Positions 1,233 through 11,592 of a stretch of 13,382 nt of DNA are shown here, in pieces. The translations under genes were made by a program, and so were the position numbers. How positions within the stretch are numbered: position 1 is the first letter of the stretch; every line of letters begins with the position of its first letter. The notes below the pieces were generated by a model that saw only the letters and a program-made list of their open reading frames with translations, was not told where the DNA came from and searched no databases. The stretch comes from Promethearchaeia archaeon (GTDB taxonomy: Archaea > Asgardarchaeota > Lokiarchaeia > Sigyniarchaeales > SOKP01), in the NCBI GenBank assembly GCA_029856125.1, contig JAHQWJ010000149.1, positions 1 through 13,382 on the forward strand, in the 5' to 3' direction.

Positions 1233-3762
1233 TTATTTTAGGTACTTACCTGTAACCGATTTTACATTCGCTACTATTTCTTGAGGAGTCCCCAAAGCTA
1301 TGATCTCTCCTCCATTTGGACCCCCTTCTGGACCTAATTCGATAATGTAATCCGTGTAAGATAAAATTTCTGGATCGTGTTCTATAATTAGAACACTATT
1401 TCCATCTTGTACTAAGTGTTCTAAAAGTTCCATTAGTTTCACTGCATCGTAAAAGGATAAACCAACGGTGGGTTCGTCTAAAATGTATAAAGATTTTGTT
1501 TTTCTAGCTCTTCCAAGTTCTTTAGCAAGTTTTACTCGTTGAGCCTCTCCACCACTCAATGTAGGAGCAGGTTGTCCTAATGTTATATATCCCATTCCAA
1601 TATCTTCAAGGATCTTTAAAACATTCGATATATTTGCATCGGATGCAAATAACTTCGCCGCTTCTGAAACAGTCAAATTTAATACATCTGAGATTGAACT
1701 ACTTTTATATTTTACTTCCAATATTTCTGGTCTATATCTAAGCCCATGGCATTCCTTACATATGATGTTAAAGCTACTTAAAAACGATATTTTTAGATCT
1801 TGTTCACCGGTACCTTTACATGAGGGACAGCGTCCCTTATCAGAATTATAAGAATAGTGACCTGCTGAATATTTGCGTTTTTTCGATTCAGCCAGTTTTG
1901 CAAATTTATTTCTTATTTTATCCCAAATTCCTATATATGACGCTGGAGTAGATGTTTTAACTCTTGAAATTGGTTTTTGACTGACAACTATAACTTCATC
2001 TAGAAATTCCCAACCACTAACCATTCCAGAATATTCTAGAAGCTCTTCACCATTCTCCTCTTCACCGTTATCATTATTTTTATTTTTGGCTTTATCTGCA
2101 CCTCGCTTGAAAAAAGGTTGCAATAAGGGGACTAATGTATCTAATATTAGAGAACTTTTTCCGGATCCAGATACACCCGCAACTCCTACCATCATCCCTA
2201 AAGGGATTTTGACTTCAATATTCTTTAAATTATTAGTCTTTGCATTCTTAATAGTTAGAAAATTAGTTGACTTGTCTATAAATTTCTTTAAATTCTCTGG
2301 TTTATCAGGTAATGATAATTTTCCACTAAGAAATTGCCCTGTATAGGAATTACTAACATTTTTTAGCTCTTCTATTGTTCCTTGGAAGACTAATTCTCCG
2401 CCATTTTTTCCTGCACCTGGACCAATGTCAATAATCTCATCAGCTATTTCAATAAAGCGTTTATCATGTTCTACAACTATAATCGTATTCCCTAAATCTT
2501 TCAACTTCTTCAACAATTCTATTAATGAGTCCTTTTCTCGTTCATGCAAACTCATACTTGGCTCGTCTAGGATATATATTAGAGAATCAATACCTGCATC
2601 TAAATGTGTCATTAACGACAATCTTTGGAGTTCGCCACCACTTAGTGTGGGTAATGGTCGATTTAAATTAATATACGATAAACCTACATCTCTCATACTT
2701 CTTAGTCCTTTGATTACAAGCTTGCTCATATTCTTTCCTTGAATAGTTTTTATATTATTTTTTTTCAATTCTTTTAGAAAAGAGATCAATTGGTCGATAG
2801 GCATCTTTGCTAACTCACCAATATGTTTATCTCCAATTTTTACACTTCTAGCTTGTTCGTTTATTCTATATCCCTCACATTCATCACATTTTTTTAAAGA
2901 CATGAAATTTTTATGAATCTTATCTCGTCGATATACACTCTTTGATTCTGTAAGAGCACGCTTTATATGAGGGATAATTCCTTCAAATACTCTTTCTAAA
3001 ATCCCCGTAAAGGTTTTCGAGTCCCAATCAAAAGGAAGTATTTTCCCACTCCCATACAAAAATATTTGTTTAACATCTTCAGGTAAATCTTTATATGGTG
3101 TATTTATGTCAAAATCATAAAACTTTGGTAGTTGCTCTACAAATCTGATTTGATCTGCAAATACTGCCGAACCGGCTTTTGTAATTTGAATAAGATTCCT
3201 ATTATAGTCTTGAACGATTAATTCTTCAGTTAGATGCATTTGATATCCTCGTCCTTTACAAGCCAAACACAATCTAGCCTCTGAGCTATTTTCTCAAGAG
3301 GTTTCCAGATGGCTCGTTAAAGGAAAAGTGCTTAATTTGCTTACGTTCTACAACCATACCACACAAATCGCACTCCAAGGATGACTGATTTACGGGTTCT
3401 TTGCAGATAGGACAAAGAAGTACACCTTCTGCTGCATATAACATCCTGAGTAGATTATATAACCTCGTTTTTGTACCTACTGTAGAGCGAGGATTGAACA
3501 CTCTCGTAGTTCTCTGCTCAACAGCAACTGTTGGACTTAAACCTTCAAGTAAATCAAACGGTTTTTCATCTTCGAATTTTGGAGGAAATCCAATAGATTG
3601 TAAATATCGATTCATTCCTTCGTCAAAAATGATATCAAAAGCTAAACTTGATTTGCCCGAACCTGATACGCCCGTAATTAGAACCATTTTCTTTTTAGGA
3701 ATTTCCACATTTAAATCCTTTAAATTATGAAGTCTCGCTCCCACTACTTTTATCTTATCCAT
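1233..3762 (-). CDS. uvrA: Class II UvrA-like (UvrA2/DrrC-type) ABC ATPase, interrupted by a 31-nt intron; exon 1 3762-3303, exon 2 3271-1233, 832 aa after splicing
   Basis: N-terminal GARLHNLK and Walker A GVSGSGKSS; first LSGGE/ILDEP; second Walker A GVSGSGKSS and LSGGEAQR/ILDEP; three CxxC..CxxC zinc modules. The short CPIC-CDLC spacing indicates no UvrB-binding domain. Start ATG 3762 (MDKIKVVG) follows gaaggt. The ORF track splits the gene into 3286-3828 and 1233-3272. Confidence 0.88.
3272..3302 (-). other. Putative bulge-helix-bulge (BHB) mRNA intron, 31 nt
   Basis: mRNA reads CAU-CUGG-AA|A-CCUC-U-UGAG-AAAAUAG-CUCA-GAGG-CUAG-AU|U-GUG. It has a 4-bp central helix CUGG/CUAG, two 3-nt bulges, an 8-bp intron stem and an exon-exon stem CAU/GUG. 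Removal gives UCU GGA AUG UGU UUG GCU UGU (SGMCLAC). Confidence 0.85.
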
Positions 3763-6696: not shown

Positions 6697-7434
6697 ATGT
6701 CAAATGAAACGCCACAAAATATCATTGATAAGTATGATAAACCACTTCCTCTTTGGACAATTGCGCTCATCCCAGTATACATTTCAGCCTTATTTATAAT
6801 CATTTTATTCCCCCTCGCTCAAGATTGGTTATGGAGTGAAGCTTGGCTATTCATTATATCATTTGTAATTAACATGACAATTAGTTTCTATTTCATAAAC
6901 AAGAAGAATCCGCGAGTTCTTCGGAACCGGATGAAGGTGAAAAAGGTCGGTATCACAGAGAAAACAAAAAGTTCCGCAGGATCAGATAAATTTATAATGC
7001 CGCTTCTTTCTATCGGATTTATTGGTGCATTATTATTACCCGTTTTCGATTACCGCAATCAATGGTCTCCAATTCCTTTCATGGTGGAGATAGTTGGACT
7101 CGTAATTTTGAATATAGGTCTAATAATCATGGACATCGCAATGGTACAAAATGCGTACGCCTCAAAAATACTTGATATAAACAAAGACCAAAAACTCATT
7201 GATACAGGGTTATATGGTCGTGTTCGCCATCCACTCTACTCCGGAGCAGTTTTACTGATCCTTGGATTACCTATAGCGTTAGGATCGTGGGTTTCATTAA
7301 TTCCCGCTGCAGTAGGAGTATTAGCCATAATAATCCGAATAAAATTCGAAGAGGAAATGCTCATTAAGGGAATGGACGGCTATATTGAATATCGAACTCG
7401 GGTAAAATACAAATTAATCCCGAAAATCTACTGA
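6697..7434 (+). CDS. Isoprenylcysteine carboxyl methyltransferase / PEMT-family integral membrane methyltransferase
   Basis: Multiple TM helices; QKLIDTGLYGRVRHPLYSG and RIKFEEEML...GYIEY...LIP motifs typical of ICMT/Ste14/PEMT. Confidence 0.88.
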   Translation: MSNETPQNIIDKYDKPLPLWTIALIPVYISALFIIILFPLAQDWLWSEAWLFIISFVINMTISFYFINKKNPRVLRNRMKVKKVGITEKTKSSAGSDKFIMPLLSIGFIGALLLPVFDYRNQWSPIPFMVEIVGLVILNIGLIIMDIAMVQNAYASKILDINKDQKLIDTGLYGRVRHPLYSGAVLLILGLPIALGSWVSLIPAAVGVLAIIIRIKFEEEMLIKGMDGYIEYRTRVKYKLIPKIY

Positions 7435-7546: not shown

Positions 7547-8980
7547 ATGAATGAAGAAATAGAAGAGATTTTAACAATAATAGCTGAAAAAGCACAATTA
7601 GCTGAAGGTATTGAAGGTGTGCGATCAGTTCTATTAATAATGTATCGCTTTCCTTCTCTAAAAAACAAAAAAGTTTCCCAAAAAACAGGAATTGCTATAC
7701 CTGCTTTAGCAGCTGTTAGAGGAGAATTAGTAAAAGCAGGAATTATAGAAAAGAAAAATTATCTCGGTGAAAAAGGTAGAACTTGGATTAGAGAAAACTT
7801 GAAATTAAAGTTTGAGTATGATCCTCTTCCAGATAATTTTAATGTGTCTTTATCTGATATTCCAAAAGATTTTGCTTCCATTAGTAAAATAGAAAAAATC
7901 TTAGAAAATCGCCCTGAACCCGATTTTGCTTTAGATCAATCGCATGCCATTCCTTCAACGGTAATAAATCGTGCTCTGTATTTATTAAGAAAAGGAGATA
8001 TTGAGGGCAGAAAAATACTATTCCTTGGCGATGATGACGCTACATCTTTAACTGTTGGTTTATTTAACTTAGCTGAAGAAATAACGGTGATAGATATTGA
8101 TCCTAATGTTATTAAATTTCTTTCTGAGAGTGCTAATACTCTATCTATAAAAAATTATAATGTATTAATACACGATCTTAGAGAACCTTCTCCTGTAAAT
8201 GTCCTAAACAAGTATGACATTGTCATAATGGATCCCCCTTATACTAATGAAGGTCTGCGGTTATTTCTAAAAAGAGCTAAGCAAATTTTGAAAACTAGCA
8301 TAATAATCGAAGGAGAGGCACATAAAGTTTTAGGGAAAAAATGTCTCTTATGTTTTGGAAATAAACCTCCCAAAGAAACACAACTCATTCAATTTTCTAT
8401 TTTAGATCATGGATTCATAATAAAAGAAATGATTCCATATTTCAATCTTTATAAAGGAGCGAGTATATTGGGCCAGTTTAGTCACCTTTATTATTTAGAA
8501 TTGGCTGAAATTCAAAATGTAGAAGAAAAATTAAGTTTAAATGTACTCCCTATTTATACTGCTGAACTAAAAGGAAGAAAGGCGAATCCCTACCGTCCCA
8601 TTGGATATCACTTTGTTGGAGAAATGCGTTTTTCAGAGCAGAACTTCCTTTTAGAAAATGAAAAAATCCAAAAAATCTTTCTAGACTCGCTAACTTACGC
8701 AGATTTAATTACTTACGACATTTTTCATCATAATTACCAACCATATGGATATAGTGCTGTTGCTATGCTTAAAACAAGTCATGCAGCAATTCACACCTGG
8801 CCAGAGCATGGATATATTAGTATTGATATATTTATTTGTGACGAGTTTTCTAAAGGAGTAGAAGTCCTAAAATTTTTGAGAAATCATTTTAAACCTGAAA
8901 AATATGAGTTTCTTTATATGGAACGAGGGAAGGGCTCTACGATCAAATATGAGCCGCTTGATTTAGATAACAAGAAATAG
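7547..8980 (+). CDS. bpsA: Branched-chain polyamine synthase (BpsA-like aminopropyltransferase) fused to a C-terminal pyruvoyl-dependent AdoMet decarboxylase (SpeD-like) domain
   Basis: BpsA/DUF43 motifs RPEPDFALDQ, GDIEGRKILFLGDDDATS, DID, HDLREP and DPPYT. The C-terminal ~120 aa carry GYH...QPYGYSAVAMLKTSHAAIHTWPEHGYISIDIFIC...RG of class I AdoMetDC. Confidence 0.85.
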   Translation: MNEEIEEILTIIAEKAQLAEGIEGVRSVLLIMYRFPSLKNKKVSQKTGIAIPALAAVRGELVKAGIIEKKNYLGEKGRTWIRENLKLKFEYDPLPDNFNVSLSDIPKDFASISKIEKILENRPEPDFALDQSHAIPSTVINRALYLLRKGDIEGRKILFLGDDDATSLTVGLFNLAEEITVIDIDPNVIKFLSESANTLSIKNYNVLIHDLREPSPVNVLNKYDIVIMDPPYTNEGLRLFLKRAKQILKTSIIIEGEAHKVLGKKCLLCFGNKPPKETQLIQFSILDHGFIIKEMIPYFNLYKGASILGQFSHLYYLELAEIQNVEEKLSLNVLPIYTAELKGRKANPYRPIGYHFVGEMRFSEQNFLLENEKIQKIFLDSLTYADLITYDIFHHNYQPYGYSAVAMLKTSHAAIHTWPEHGYISIDIFICDEFSKGVEVLKFLRNHFKPEKYEFLYMERGKGSTIKYEPLDLDNKK

Positions 8981-9057: not shown

Positions 9058-9702
9058 ATGGAAGAAAATAAATTAACAGAATTAAGTGACCTTAAAGAAA
9101 TTGCAATAGGAAAAATAAAATCGGCATACAATCGCTCGATTGATGCTGAAGCGACACATTCAGTTCTCTGGGATATCACTGAAAAAAAAAGAAATATGTT
9201 GCTTAAGTTTGCTTTATTAATTAGCATTTTAATTATAATATTTGCTTATTTACCGTTTCTTTTTGGCGAAGTAGTAATAATATGGGTTTTTAGTTTAATT
9301 GCTGAAATTTTAGCTTTTGTAATAGCTGGAGTAGCAATATATGGAATTTTTCTTGCCAATTATTCGAAAGCTCATAAACAGCTTATTCACGCCTCTATTC
9401 TTTTACGAAGGCAGAGTCTGGATTTTCTCCAATATAAATTAGATAATTTAGATAAAAAATCATATATTGAAGAATTGAAGTCCTTAGAAGTAAATGATAA
9501 GAACCTAAAAGAAAAAACTCAGCTACATACTGAAAAAATCTCAACTCAAGTAATAATGAGAATTACTTACAATATTGAAGAACTTGAAAGAGCGGGGTTT
9601 AAAAAACATGTTATAACTCAACAAGCAATAGATTCTGCCAATGAAAAATTAGAGAAATTTAATGCGTTGAGAACTTGCGAAGCGTGGCTTAAATTTGATT
9701 AA
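9058..9702 (+). CDS. Two-TM membrane protein, SLATT-like architecture
   Basis: Helical N-terminus, two closely spaced hydrophobic helices, then YSKAH...L and a charged helical tail. gagg RBS upstream. The ORF is solid; the family assignment is tentative. Confidence 0.6.
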   Translation: MEENKLTELSDLKEIAIGKIKSAYNRSIDAEATHSVLWDITEKKRNMLLKFALLISILIIIFAYLPFLFGEVVIIWVFSLIAEILAFVIAGVAIYGIFLANYSKAHKQLIHASILLRRQSLDFLQYKLDNLDKKSYIEELKSLEVNDKNLKEKTQLHTEKISTQVIMRITYNIEELERAGFKKHVITQQAIDSANEKLEKFNALRTCEAWLKFD

Positions 9703-9828: not shown

Positions 9829-9950
9829 GAAGGTAGTAGAAATTCGAGCTAACATTGGATTTCGCCCTCTATTAAACTCAAGTATGAGTTTAATTCTCTC
9901 TTAACCTAAAATACTTCGGCTCGAATTGGAGCTCCTTTTCCTACTTTTTC
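9829..9950 (+). ncRNA. Candidate structured small RNA (strand uncertain)
   Basis: Nested inverted repeats: gaaggtag/ctactttt, aattcgagc (9841-9849)/gctcgaatt (9919-9927), attaaactca (9871-9880)/tgagtttaat (9885-9894). TATA-like ttttatata at 9799-9807 and a T-tract at the 3' end. Confidence 0.35.
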
Positions 9951-10170
9951 ATAGATTCAATTTTTTGATTGAAGATATAATCTCAAGTTTAAGGATCGGT
10001 TTGCTTAATCACCCTCTTCCTATATTATGTTTAATTCTTGTTAGATCTTCACGAAAGAATATAATTAATTATAACAAAAATTTTTATAGAAATTATTTGA
10101 TAATTATATTGTTAGATTTCTACATAAAAGTAGAAAATGATCAAAAATAAACTGAATCCAGAAAGACAAA

Positions 10171-11592
10171 ATGAAAAATTCAACTGTAAGGCTTACATTT
10201 TTAGGTGGCGTGAATGAAGTAGGAGGAAATCAAATCCTTTTAGAAGATTTCACCTACGATGTAAAAATCTTTTTAGATTTTGGAATTAATATTAAGAATT
10301 TCAATGAACACTTCGAAAGGTACGAAGAACCATCTTCAGTTAAGGAATTAATAAAGTTAGGTTTGTTACCTAATGCAGAACACCTTTCAATTGAAAACTT
10401 ATATACTAATTACGAAGCTAGTAAGAACCAGGAATATATTGATTTGGAATCAAATGTAGATGGGGTTCTTATCACGCACCCACATAAAGACCATTTTTTT
10501 GGTCTATCATTTATTAACAGAAAAATCCCCATTTATACCGGTGTTTTTACAAAAAAAATTATTTCTGCTTATTCTAAATGTTCAAAGTTTTCGATCAGCA
10601 ATAATTACAGGGGATTAGAATGGAATCTATTTCGTACTGGAGATGTTCTCAATATTAAAGGGTTAAAAATAATTCCCGTGCATGTAGATCATTCAATTCC
10701 AGCCGCTTATGGTTTTATTATTAAAACTTCTGGAGGTATTGTTGTTTACACGGGAGATTTTCGTATGCATGGACCTTTATCTGCTATGACTCAAGATTTT
10801 TTGAAAGAAATAACAAATAAAGATTTTGATAAAATTGATATCTTAATCTGTGAAGGTACACATATTCATAGGGGTGCAATCGAGTCCGAAAGTAACGTAG
10901 AGAAAAATATTGAACAACTCTTCCTTGAAAATCCTTATGATTTTTTTTTAGTAAAATATGGGCGTTTAGATTGGGATCGATTCAGGACTTTTTCTTTAAT
11001 TGCAAAGAAGTATGGCTGGAAATTTATCATTACCGAAAAGGATGCCTATTTCTATTATCTTCTGAATAAAGATAAAATCTACGAAAGTATGAAAAATCCA
11101 AATATAATTGATGACGATCACATATTAATATTATCTCAGGGTAATGCAAAGTACAGTTGGCAAGAAAAAATAAGACAAGCGCTCCATAAGATAAAGAAAG
11201 GTTCCCGGTTTATAACTTATAATGAAATTAAAGAGTTAGAACGTCAATTTCTCTTTTATATTACATCTGTCCCAAGAGATATTATTAAAAAAATAAATCC
11301 GAATCTTAAGGGTGCTTTTATATCATCTAGCATAGATCCTTACACGGAAGAATATATTGATAATAATAGAACATTAACCCGCTATTTCCGTCAACAAGGC
11401 ATTCCTTCTTTCAAAGTACATGCGTCTGGACACGCGATGCCACATCATTTAATAAACTTTATCAATTTGGTCAATCCTGTAAATTTAATCCCCGTTCACA
11501 CCGAACATCCCCATTTTTTTAAAACATTTTTCAAAAATTCTGATATTGAAGTAATAGTTCTTAATAAAAACGATAAATTTAATTTGAATTGA
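10171..11592 (+). CDS. Metallo-beta-lactamase beta-CASP hydrolase, RNase J-like
   Basis: GGVNEVGGN, LDFG, THPHKDH (HxHxDH), VDHS, YTGDFR, EGT, HASGHA and PVHTEH motifs. Confidence 0.88.
   Translation: MKNSTVRLTFLGGVNEVGGNQILLEDFTYDVKIFLDFGINIKNFNEHFERYEEPSSVKELIKLGLLPNAEHLSIENLYTNYEASKNQEYIDLESNVDGVLITHPHKDHFFGLSFINRKIPIYTGVFTKKIISAYSKCSKFSISNNYRGLEWNLFRTGDVLNIKGLKIIPVHVDHSIPAAYGFIIKTSGGIVVYTGDFRMHGPLSAMTQDFLKEITNKDFDKIDILICEGTHIHRGAIESESNVEKNIEQLFLENPYDFFLVKYGRLDWDRFRTFSLIAKKYGWKFIITEKDAYFYYLLNKDKIYESMKNPNIIDDDHILILSQGNAKYSWQEKIRQALHKIKKGSRFITYNEIKELERQFLFYITSVPRDIIKKINPNLKGAFISSSIDPYTEEYIDNNRTLTRYFRQQGIPSFKVHASGHAMPHHLINFINLVNPVNLIPVHTEHPHFFKTFFKNSDIEVIVLNKNDKFNLN

Follow-up and report, generated by a model that had tools for sequence, protein, structure and literature searches.

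Introduction

Which reaction is catalyzed by a protein that joins, in one polypeptide, a relative of the branched-polyamine synthase BpsA to S-adenosylmethionine decarboxylase (AdoMetDC, SpeD)? We address this question for a gene of a Promethearchaeia archaeon (Lokiarchaeia, Sigyniarchaeales) at positions 7547 to 8980 of contig JAHQWJ010000149.1 (assembly GCA_029856125.1). The stretch analyzed, hereafter the window, is this entire contig (13,382 nt; 13.4 kb), which belongs to a 3.69-Mb metagenome-assembled genome (MAG) that is 99% complete with 6% estimated contamination. A first-pass annotation, made from the DNA letters alone, had read the gene as a synthase of N4-branched polyamines that supplies its own aminopropyl donor. 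The protein is very probably an AdoMetDC combined with an aminopropyltransferase dependent on decarboxylated S-adenosylmethionine (dcSAM). Its best overall explanation, which we consider probable from the sequence comparisons, is a self-sufficient bifunctional module that would both make dcSAM and transfer its aminopropyl group to a SpeE-independent acceptor.

An Intact Gene for a Two-Domain Protein

The gene is a single ATG-start open reading frame (ORF) on the forward strand (7547..8980, +), which the ORF listing and its translation give as 477 aa (54.7 kDa) with zero internal stops. At the 32% G+C of the window, stops are expected to make up about 7.6% of random codons and the computed chance of 477 open codons is roughly 4e-17, so the frame did not arise by chance. 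Homologues of similar size (471-480 aa) span 97-100% of the query, which argues that the start and end of the ORF are correct. The uninterrupted BpsA-like and AdoMetDC ORF of the first-pass annotation was confirmed by the lack of internal stops, by the Pfam and TIGR03330 matches described below and by the full-length homologues. Likewise, the GDDD motif, the DPPYT motif and Ser411 (codon 8777-8779) fall where it had placed them, at residues 161-164, at residues 229-233 and in the peptide KTSH, respectively. A same-genus genome has 85% DNA identity across the fusion and the downstream genes, indicating that the contig is not contamination. In same-genus genomes without the fusion, the left flank is kept and other DNA is found in the place of the gene.

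The C-Terminal Half Has the Hallmarks of a Class-1b AdoMetDC

The C-terminal half shows all the catalytic hallmarks of class-1b AdoMetDC enzymes that process themselves, and activity is predicted. It matches AdoMet_dc (PF02675) at residues 355-461 over the full length of the profile (positions 1-107 of 107; E 3.1e-25, 89 bits, cut-off 25) and passes the NCBIfam AdoMetDC equivalog TIGR03330 (86.6 bits versus a cut-off of 75.65). The alignment to the AdoMetDC of Thermotoga maritima (1tlu) is gapless through Ser411-Cys431, with His at +5 and Cys at +20; we take the T. maritima catalytic residues Ser63, His68 and Cys83 to be the equivalents of Ser411, His416 and Cys431. These three residues, together with Trp418 and Glu420, are invariant in the 52 fused sequences compared. 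Further, the SpeD part of the AlphaFold2 (AF2) model superimposes on 1tlu_A with a TM of 0.87 and a root-mean-square deviation of 1.8 A over 112 residues (Foldseek). The domain thus shares with the class-1b enzymes (T. maritima TM0655, 1TLU/1VR7; Aquifex aeolicus, 2III) its full length, the spacing of Ser, His and Cys and the HTWPE motif. It differs from them in its position C-terminal to a partner of 350 aa, in a beta chain that would be 410 aa long and in a cleavage site that reads Thr-Ser rather than Glu-Ser. The residue preceding the cleaved serine is Thr410 in Lokiarchaeia and Glu in the fusions of Odin, Heimdall and bacteria.

Cleavage before Ser411 is predicted to yield chains of 410 aa (46.7 kDa) and 67 aa (8.0 kDa). 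The arithmetic of a 67-aa alpha chain in the first-pass annotation therefore holds, but not its proposed release: the 8-kDa alpha chain would stay in the folded SpeD domain and would be seen as a separate peptide only on a denaturing gel.

The N-Terminal Half Is BpsA-Like on the Donor Side

We used as the reference system BpsA (EC 2.5.1.128) of Thermococcus kodakarensis (Tk-BpsA; TK1691, PDB 5XNC/5XNF/5XNH) and of Thermus thermophilus (6J27). BpsA_C (PF01861) matches residues 113-312 (E 3.8e-41, 141.4 bits, cut-off 27), though only at profile positions 4-193 of 243. The top matches in the PDB by sequence are Pyrococcus furiosus 2QM3 and Tk-BpsA 5XNC (1e-26 with the single sequence and 5e-67 with the family profile), and the AF2 model of the whole protein (pLDDT 89.1, pTM 0.71) matches the fold of 5xnc with an E-value of 1.5e-21 over ~345 columns (Foldseek). 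The similarity extends into the N-terminal domain (AF2 helices H3-84), where the profile aligns with chains 5xnc and 2qm3 from their residue 19 on.

The functional residues of Tk-BpsA were taken from PMC12979288, the solved 5xnc chain being numbered native +20. In this enzyme the GDDD motif (157-160) binds or positions the aminopropyl amine of dcSAM, residues Asp225, Glu259, Tyr290 and Tyr316 activate the acceptor, and a C-terminal acidic cluster (E-x-x-DDEE) serves as aminopropyl carrier and specificity determinant (PMC12979288). The fusions retain as invariant residues GDDD (161-164), Asp229 (Tk Asp225) and Tyr302 (Tk Tyr290). The Glu259 position is lost to Asn272 and varies across the fusion family. 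Similarly, the Tyr316 column is occupied by Phe311 and is variable, and the loop of ~18 residues around Tyr316 is absent from the whole branch of PF01861 proteins in which the canonical DPPET reads DPPYT, a motif invariant in the fusions. The tail aligns with the C-terminal 'IY' lid of BpsA (profile-profile probability 100%, E 1.7e-62), so that IYTAE is matched with the Tk carrier cluster 'ELYDDEE'; only the invariant Tyr337 and a sole acidic residue, Glu340, remain of it. The donor side looks BpsA-like, and the acceptor and carrier sides look rebuilt.

In addition to GDDD, the Asp of DPP, the Tyr290 equivalent and the lid, the fusion protein has in common with BpsA the Pfam family and a winged helix-turn-helix (wHTH)-like N-domain followed by a Rossmann core. 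It is set apart by an identity of ~24% (structure-based) or ~40% (core sequence), by the DPPYT motif, the Asn in place of Glu259, the missing Tyr316 loop and the one-Glu tail, and also by its separate branch, mesophilic hosts, attached SpeD and a host without a known spermidine source. Canonical-type BpsAs (DPPET/DPPDT, with tails of the type '...IYYDEE...') are held by other Asgard families and are clearly distinct.

As to numbering, residues 157-160, 225, 259, 290 and 316 of PMC12979288 fit the 5xnc chain at native + 20. The acidic cluster, cited as E339/D342-E345, fits the 'ELYDDEE' tail only at an offset of 22, a numbering inconsistency in the literature or the construct.

The Fusion Is Widespread in Mesophilic Archaea and Bacteria

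At 65-100% identity to the query, a protein of equal length with both domains recurs in at least 120 90%-identity clusters, and the named homologues in this range derive from Lokiarchaeota/Promethearchaeota MAGs. When 1.84 billion representatives were searched exhaustively, both domains were present in about 30 of the 150 best-matching 50%-identity clusters, with fusion members named in Odinarchaeota, Heimdallarchaeota, Hodarchaeales, Xenorhabdus, Vagococcus fluvialis, Erysipelothrix and Lachnospiraceae. Scanning species-representative genomes added true fusions in Enterococcus larvae, Lysinibacillus, Cytobacillus, Siminovitchia, Bacteroides, Phocaeicola and Dysgonomonas, as well as bpsA-like genes directly followed by a separate speD in Clostridium, Tissierella, Anaerocolumna and Virgibacillus. 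Among isolates, the single-ORF fusion is present in the genomes of Xenorhabdus, Vagococcus, Erysipelothrix and Bacteroides. The architecture is real, common and widespread in mesophilic archaea and bacteria, and the suspicion in the first-pass annotation that the lineage might not be thermophilic was supported: the host lineage is not restricted to thermophiles. A 2026 review describes BpsA as restricted to thermophiles and branched polyamines as known from thermophiles only (PMC12979288).

The first-pass annotation had also allowed for an architecture already common and characterized. Common it is (dozens of 50%-identity clusters in two domains of life), but no characterization was found: a literature coverage that is incomplete, with many subscription papers outside it, gave no published description of a BpsA-like-SpeD fusion. 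The proteins are annotated by NCBI as 'adenosylmethionine decarboxylase' in all cases, and one homologue is an N(4)-bis(aminopropyl)spermidine synthase in UniRef. Among 27 bacterial loci examined there was no conserved neighbor beyond the bpsA-like/speD pair, so that the module behaves as a portable unit; occasional neighbors were GNAT acetyltransferases (8/27), an ABC-F ATPase and an AraC regulator.

The nearest functional parallel is in Ca. Pelagibacter, where AdoMetDC-aminopropyltransferase fusions have been functionally shown (PMC11107197). Both systems make and spend dcSAM in one polypeptide, as a prediction in our case. The Pelagibacter proteins, however, have an N-terminal SpeD followed by a SpeE-type (PF01564) transferase, whereas the order is reversed here and the partner comes from the unrelated BpsA family; PF01564 scores 16.8 bits in the fusion ORF, under the cut-off of 22.9. 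The SpeD fusions described in PMC10407285 are SpeD-SpeD only.

In an IQ-TREE phylogeny the fusion falls in the DPPYT branch and canonical BpsA (DPPET/DPPDT) lies outside both fusion-bearing groups, with a weakly supported root split (SH-aLRT 20). The seven Asgard fusions are monophyletic (SH-aLRT 82, or 99 when the unfused metagenomic row P0148 is included), and the bacterial fused, adjacent and Zn-ribbon forms are grouped separately (SH-aLRT 94). This separation implies at least two fusion events, and a FastTree phylogeny of 225 rows suggests more than two. Origin by read-through of the Asgard gene pair in which speD precedes the bpsA-like gene was rejected, because the fusion has the opposite domain order. 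The unfused PF01861 proteins of the DPPYT branch occur in Paenibacillus, Brevibacillus and families f2, f5 and f25 of a sample of 151 Asgard genomes, whose families we label f1 (the window's own), f21 and so on. They share DPPYT and IYTxE with the fusions, and some directly adjoin speD. They differ in having no fused SpeD, and many end in a CxxC...CxxC ribbon; this ribbon is the linker in the Xenorhabdus- and Bacteroides-type fusions.

Host Genomes Point to a SpeE-Independent Context

Absence calls rest on MAGs and six-frame searches with hidden Markov models (HMMs). The source genome encodes AdoMet_dc and BpsA_C once each, both in the fusion ORF, and at 99% completeness the HMM searches revealed no Spermine_synth/SpeE, no carboxyspermidine dehydrogenase (CASDH) C-domain and no nspC above cut-off. 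Having no SpeE, no CASDH/NspC and no other SpeD, the genome is without a known spermidine source. It has PdaD, a pyruvoyl arginine decarboxylase, and agmatinase.

For comparison within the window's own family we used 31 genomes (at least 90% complete, ten genera, evenly drawn). The fusion occurs in 6/31 (three genera) and deoxyhypusine synthase (DHS) in 31/31, which indicates that the fusion is accessory and that its product does not feed hypusination in the lineage. An essential spermidine synthase or supply for hypusination was rejected as a role on these counts. In the 151-genome sample, family relatives without the fusion are also without SpeD and SpeE.

The source genome has two DHS paralogues (G000:C1:5313-6951 and G000:C136:66784-68572), of which one is divergent from pdaD and the other adjoins agmatinase. 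At least two copies are present in most of the 31 family genomes (eight have one), and most of these genomes are without any aminopropyl pathway. The DHS copies in genomes lacking such a pathway suggest that (deoxy)hypusine or homospermidine is made by a route based on agmatine or putrescine.

Across the 151 Asgard genomes, part of f1 has the fused form and no real SpeE except in genome G136, and f21 has the fused form in 7/7 genomes and no real SpeE. Families f8, f11, f15, f18 and f19 have SpeE, and there the unfused BpsA-family gene adjoins a separate speD, in f18 within a speD-speE-bpsA-like operon. Fusion-bearing Asgard genomes have SpeD only within the fusion, save for an extra 108-aa SpeD-like ORF in G093. 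The G136 gene (G136:C151:1399-2691), the sole real SpeE in the window's family, lies on a contig of 7 kb, where its neighbor is another, divergent BpsA_C gene (DPPYE) with an in-frame TAA in the match; contamination or recent transfer is possible.

The bacterial sample comprised 25 genomes, 20 with a fused or adjacent module and 5 with the unfused, non-adjacent form. No SpeE was detected in 16 of the 20 module-bearing genomes, and a 17th, Xenorhabdus hominickii, has a split speE. Each of the five genomes in which the gene is unfused and non-adjacent encodes SpeE and a stand-alone SpeD. Eight fully scored module-bearing bacteria are without SpeE and NspC (two Xenorhabdus, Enterococcus, two Tissierella, Siminovitchia, Clostridium mobile and Vagococcus), a count that includes X. 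hominickii with its split gene. In that species (G152 C79:106975-108189) speE is present as two overlapping ORFs (218 and 155 aa) beside a class-1a speD and may be a decaying canonical pathway in a fusion-bearing genome.

A different setting is seen in family f5. At L105:8888-10036 (-) and 10138-11412 (+) a DPPYT-branch Zn-ribbon gene is divergently paired with a gene for a LysA-like pyridoxal phosphate (PLP) decarboxylase (230 bits, under the lysA cut-off of 297.9), after which come genes for a CxxCxxCC protein and an amino-acid kinase; SpeE and AdoMetDC were undetected in f5 genomes. The same layout, by position and length only, is found at L106:6394-7668 (-) / 7793-8953 (+), where a 424-aa ORF takes the decarboxylase position.

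A Probable Self-Supplying Aminopropyltransferase and Its Alternatives

The conserved residues and fold of the SpeD domain suggest that it would cleave itself between Thr410 and Ser411 and, once processed, decarboxylate SAM to dcSAM. The BpsA-family domain, by family membership and by its invariant GDDD, Asp229 and Tyr302, is predicted to bind dcSAM, and the aminopropyl group would then be transferred to an amine acceptor with release of 5'-methylthioadenosine. Self-supply of the donor, as the first-pass annotation had suggested, is well supported by the SpeD hallmarks, by GDDD and by the repeated fusion or side-by-side placement of the two genes, which itself argues for a functional link between them. 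The module is mostly found in genomes without a housekeeping SpeD or SpeE, where it must bring its own dcSAM supply, hence the fusion or adjacency. This supply logic is the simplest reading of the architecture and leaves the acceptor unspecified.

A SpeE-independent acceptor is favored because the acceptor-side features of BpsA are changed and the genome has no known spermidine source. As about half of the host genomes checked also have none, spermidine could not be an obligatory substrate unless imported. The acceptor would most likely be agmatine or putrescine, which the genome's PdaD and agmatinase would supply; the product would then be aminopropylagmatine or spermidine, perhaps elongated beyond that stage. 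A diamine or agmatine as the first acceptor is a serious prospect, if just short of probable. More tentatively, the DPPYT branch could constitute a second, SpeE-independent family of primary aminopropyltransferases that, with a fused or adjacent SpeD of its own, would produce the first aminopropylated polyamine (spermidine, aminopropylagmatine or an analogue) from a diamine or agmatine. Its hosts would, equally tentatively, be mesophiles that have neither SpeE nor a carboxyspermidine route, among Asgard archaea, Xenorhabdus, Enterococcus/Vagococcus and Clostridium/Tissierella.

Several observations weigh against this model. The cleavage site is Thr-Ser and not the Glu-Ser customary in class-1b enzymes. 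Cleavage after Lys, Ser or Gly occurs in other pyruvoyl enzymes, and we therefore do not regard the site as disabling. Polyamine uptake could provide spermidine, and five Bacteroidales hosts have NspC, hence spermidine is available there. Closely related unfused members coexist with SpeE in Paenibacillus and Brevibacillus, so that the DPPYT-branch enzyme is not simply a SpeE substitute. Further, f5 has unfused DPPYT-branch Zn-ribbon genes in 17/17 genomes and no detectable AdoMetDC of PF02675 or PF01536, from which some members of the branch may use a donor other than dcSAM. The eukaryote-type AdoMetDC (PF01536) had no match in the 151 Asgard genomes, a weak negative since no control genome matched either.

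The alternative closest to the first-pass annotation is BpsA-type activity, with N4-branched products made from (imported) spermidine. It draws on the BpsA structures being the closest in the PDB by sequence and fold, the invariant GDDD, Asp225 and Tyr290 equivalents, the alignment of the tail with the C-terminal lid, the UniRef name of one homologue (an N(4)-bis(aminopropyl)spermidine synthase) and the spermidine that Bacteroidales hosts produce via NspC. Yet Glu259 has become a variable Asn272, the ~18-residue Tyr316 loop is missing, the E-x-x-DDEE cluster is down to one Glu and DPPET has changed to DPPYT, all in a PF01861 branch separate from canonical BpsA. Moreover, SpeE and CASDH/NspC are absent in the source genome, as are SpeE and NspC in the eight bacterial hosts, and branched polyamines are known from thermophiles only (PMC12979288). 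We consider this activity unlikely; the N4-branched product was the claim of the first-pass annotation that was not supported, and a branched polyamine cannot be assumed. Less likely still is a different chemistry. The Rossmann domain would then use SAM itself, to carry out N-methyl transfer or 3-amino-3-carboxypropyl transfer, and the substrate decarboxylated by the SpeD-like domain would be arginine, ornithine or the transfer product in its carboxylated form; or else the target would be no free polyamine but, for instance, a macromolecular amino group. The sequence (D/N)PPY is the classic motif of amino-methyltransferases, and DPPYT fits it; PH1948 and METTL5 are the nearest structural neighbors after BpsA. 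SpeD homologues have repeatedly neofunctionalized as Arg/Orn decarboxylases (PMC10407285), the f5 relatives reside in AdoMetDC-less genomes beside a LysA-like PLP decarboxylase, and the proteins have a wHTH module and, in relatives, a Zn ribbon. Set against this are the invariant GDDD, the passing of AdoMetDC equivalog TIGR03330 and a recurrent fused or adjacent partner that is always SpeD. Canonical BpsA also has the same wHTH N-domain and yet acts on free polyamines, and the genome already has a separate arginine decarboxylase in PdaD, leaving no need for the SpeD domain to be an Arg/Orn decarboxylase.

An artefact (mis-assembly, a frameshift-joined gene pair or a decaying pseudogene) might be suspected from the short 13.4-kb contig and the 6% estimated contamination of the MAG. 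It is scarcely credible given the clusters (at least 120, at 65-100% identity) that equal the query in length, cover it fully and stem from numerous separate assemblies, the single ORF in isolate genomes, the invariant catalytic residues and the synteny with a same-genus genome. The self-supplying aminopropyltransferase with a SpeE-independent acceptor remains the explanation we prefer.

Features of the Gene and Its Surroundings

The features assigned to the fusion gene are collected in Table 1.

Table 1. Coordinates of the fusion gene and of its domains, motifs and predicted catalytic codons in the window.
Feature	Window positions	Strand	Basis or remark
Whole ORF: BpsA-like aminopropyltransferase fused to class-1b AdoMetDC	7547..8980	+	Pfam, NCBIfam, homologues
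N-terminal helical, winged-helix-like domain, residues ~1-105	7547..7861	+	Weak wHTH Pfam matches; profile alignment to 5xnc/2qm3; AF2 helices
BpsA_C (PF01861) Rossmann core, residues 113-312	7883..8482	+	Pfam; PDB sequence and fold matches
GDDD motif, residues 161-164	8027..8038	+	Tk-BpsA 157-160; invariant among fusions
DPPYT, residues 229-233	8231..8245	+	Asp229 = Tk Asp225; Tyr232 where canonical DPPET has Glu
IYTAE, residues 336-340	8552..8566	+	Aligned with the acidic '(I/L)Y-DDEE' lid at the C terminus of canonical BpsA
Short linker	8567..8599	+	AF2 confidence low at residues 344-348
Class-1b AdoMetDC (SpeD) proenzyme domain, residues 352-477	8600..8977	+	Pfam, NCBIfam, structure matches
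Ser411 codon, predicted self-cleavage/pyruvoyl site between Thr410 and Ser411	8777..8779	+	Spacing as for T. maritima Ser63
His416 codon, HTWPE motif	8792..8794	+	T. maritima His68 equivalent; invariant
Cys431 codon	8837..8839	+	T. maritima Cys83 equivalent; invariant

Upstream of the gene is an ICMT/PEMT-like membrane methyltransferase (6697-7434, +) and downstream a 214-aa ORF with only a weak DUF1404 match (9058-9702, +). Neither adjoins the fusion in same-genus genome G077, nor does the upstream one in G067. An intergenic element of ~60-97 nt (9836-9932, +) has terminal inverted ends and an internal 10-bp hairpin (folding z-score -2.2). It has a second copy in the same genome (G000:C74:3166-3223) and is found at 77-92% identity in 5/5 same-genus genomes checked, often in multiple copies. 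In relatives, a repeat of this type is downstream of the variable segment that carries the fusion. A tRNA as the right border of this variable island was rejected, there being no match by ARAGORN or Rfam; the conserved element there is a small repeat. Elsewhere in the window, a UvrA homologue (1233-3272, -) covers only positions ~278-940 of UvrA models, with the N-terminal third absent, and ends a tightly packed row of padR, BtrH-like, DUF3795 and methyltransferase genes.

Implications for Polyamine Biology

Polyamine biosynthesis is essentially unstudied in Asgard archaea, the closest known relatives of eukaryotes. Our analyses place a large BpsA-related branch, usually with its own AdoMetDC, in mesophilic Asgard archaea and in cultured gut, insect and soil bacteria, including culturable hosts such as Vagococcus, Xenorhabdus and Bacteroides. 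If the branch were indeed a second family of primary aminopropyltransferases, it would provide a third route to triamines and overturn the view of BpsA-type enzymes as a speciality of thermophiles. Acceptance of diamines or agmatine would mean a new triamine route, and branching of spermidine would mean branched polyamines in mesophiles; either outcome would correct the present annotation.

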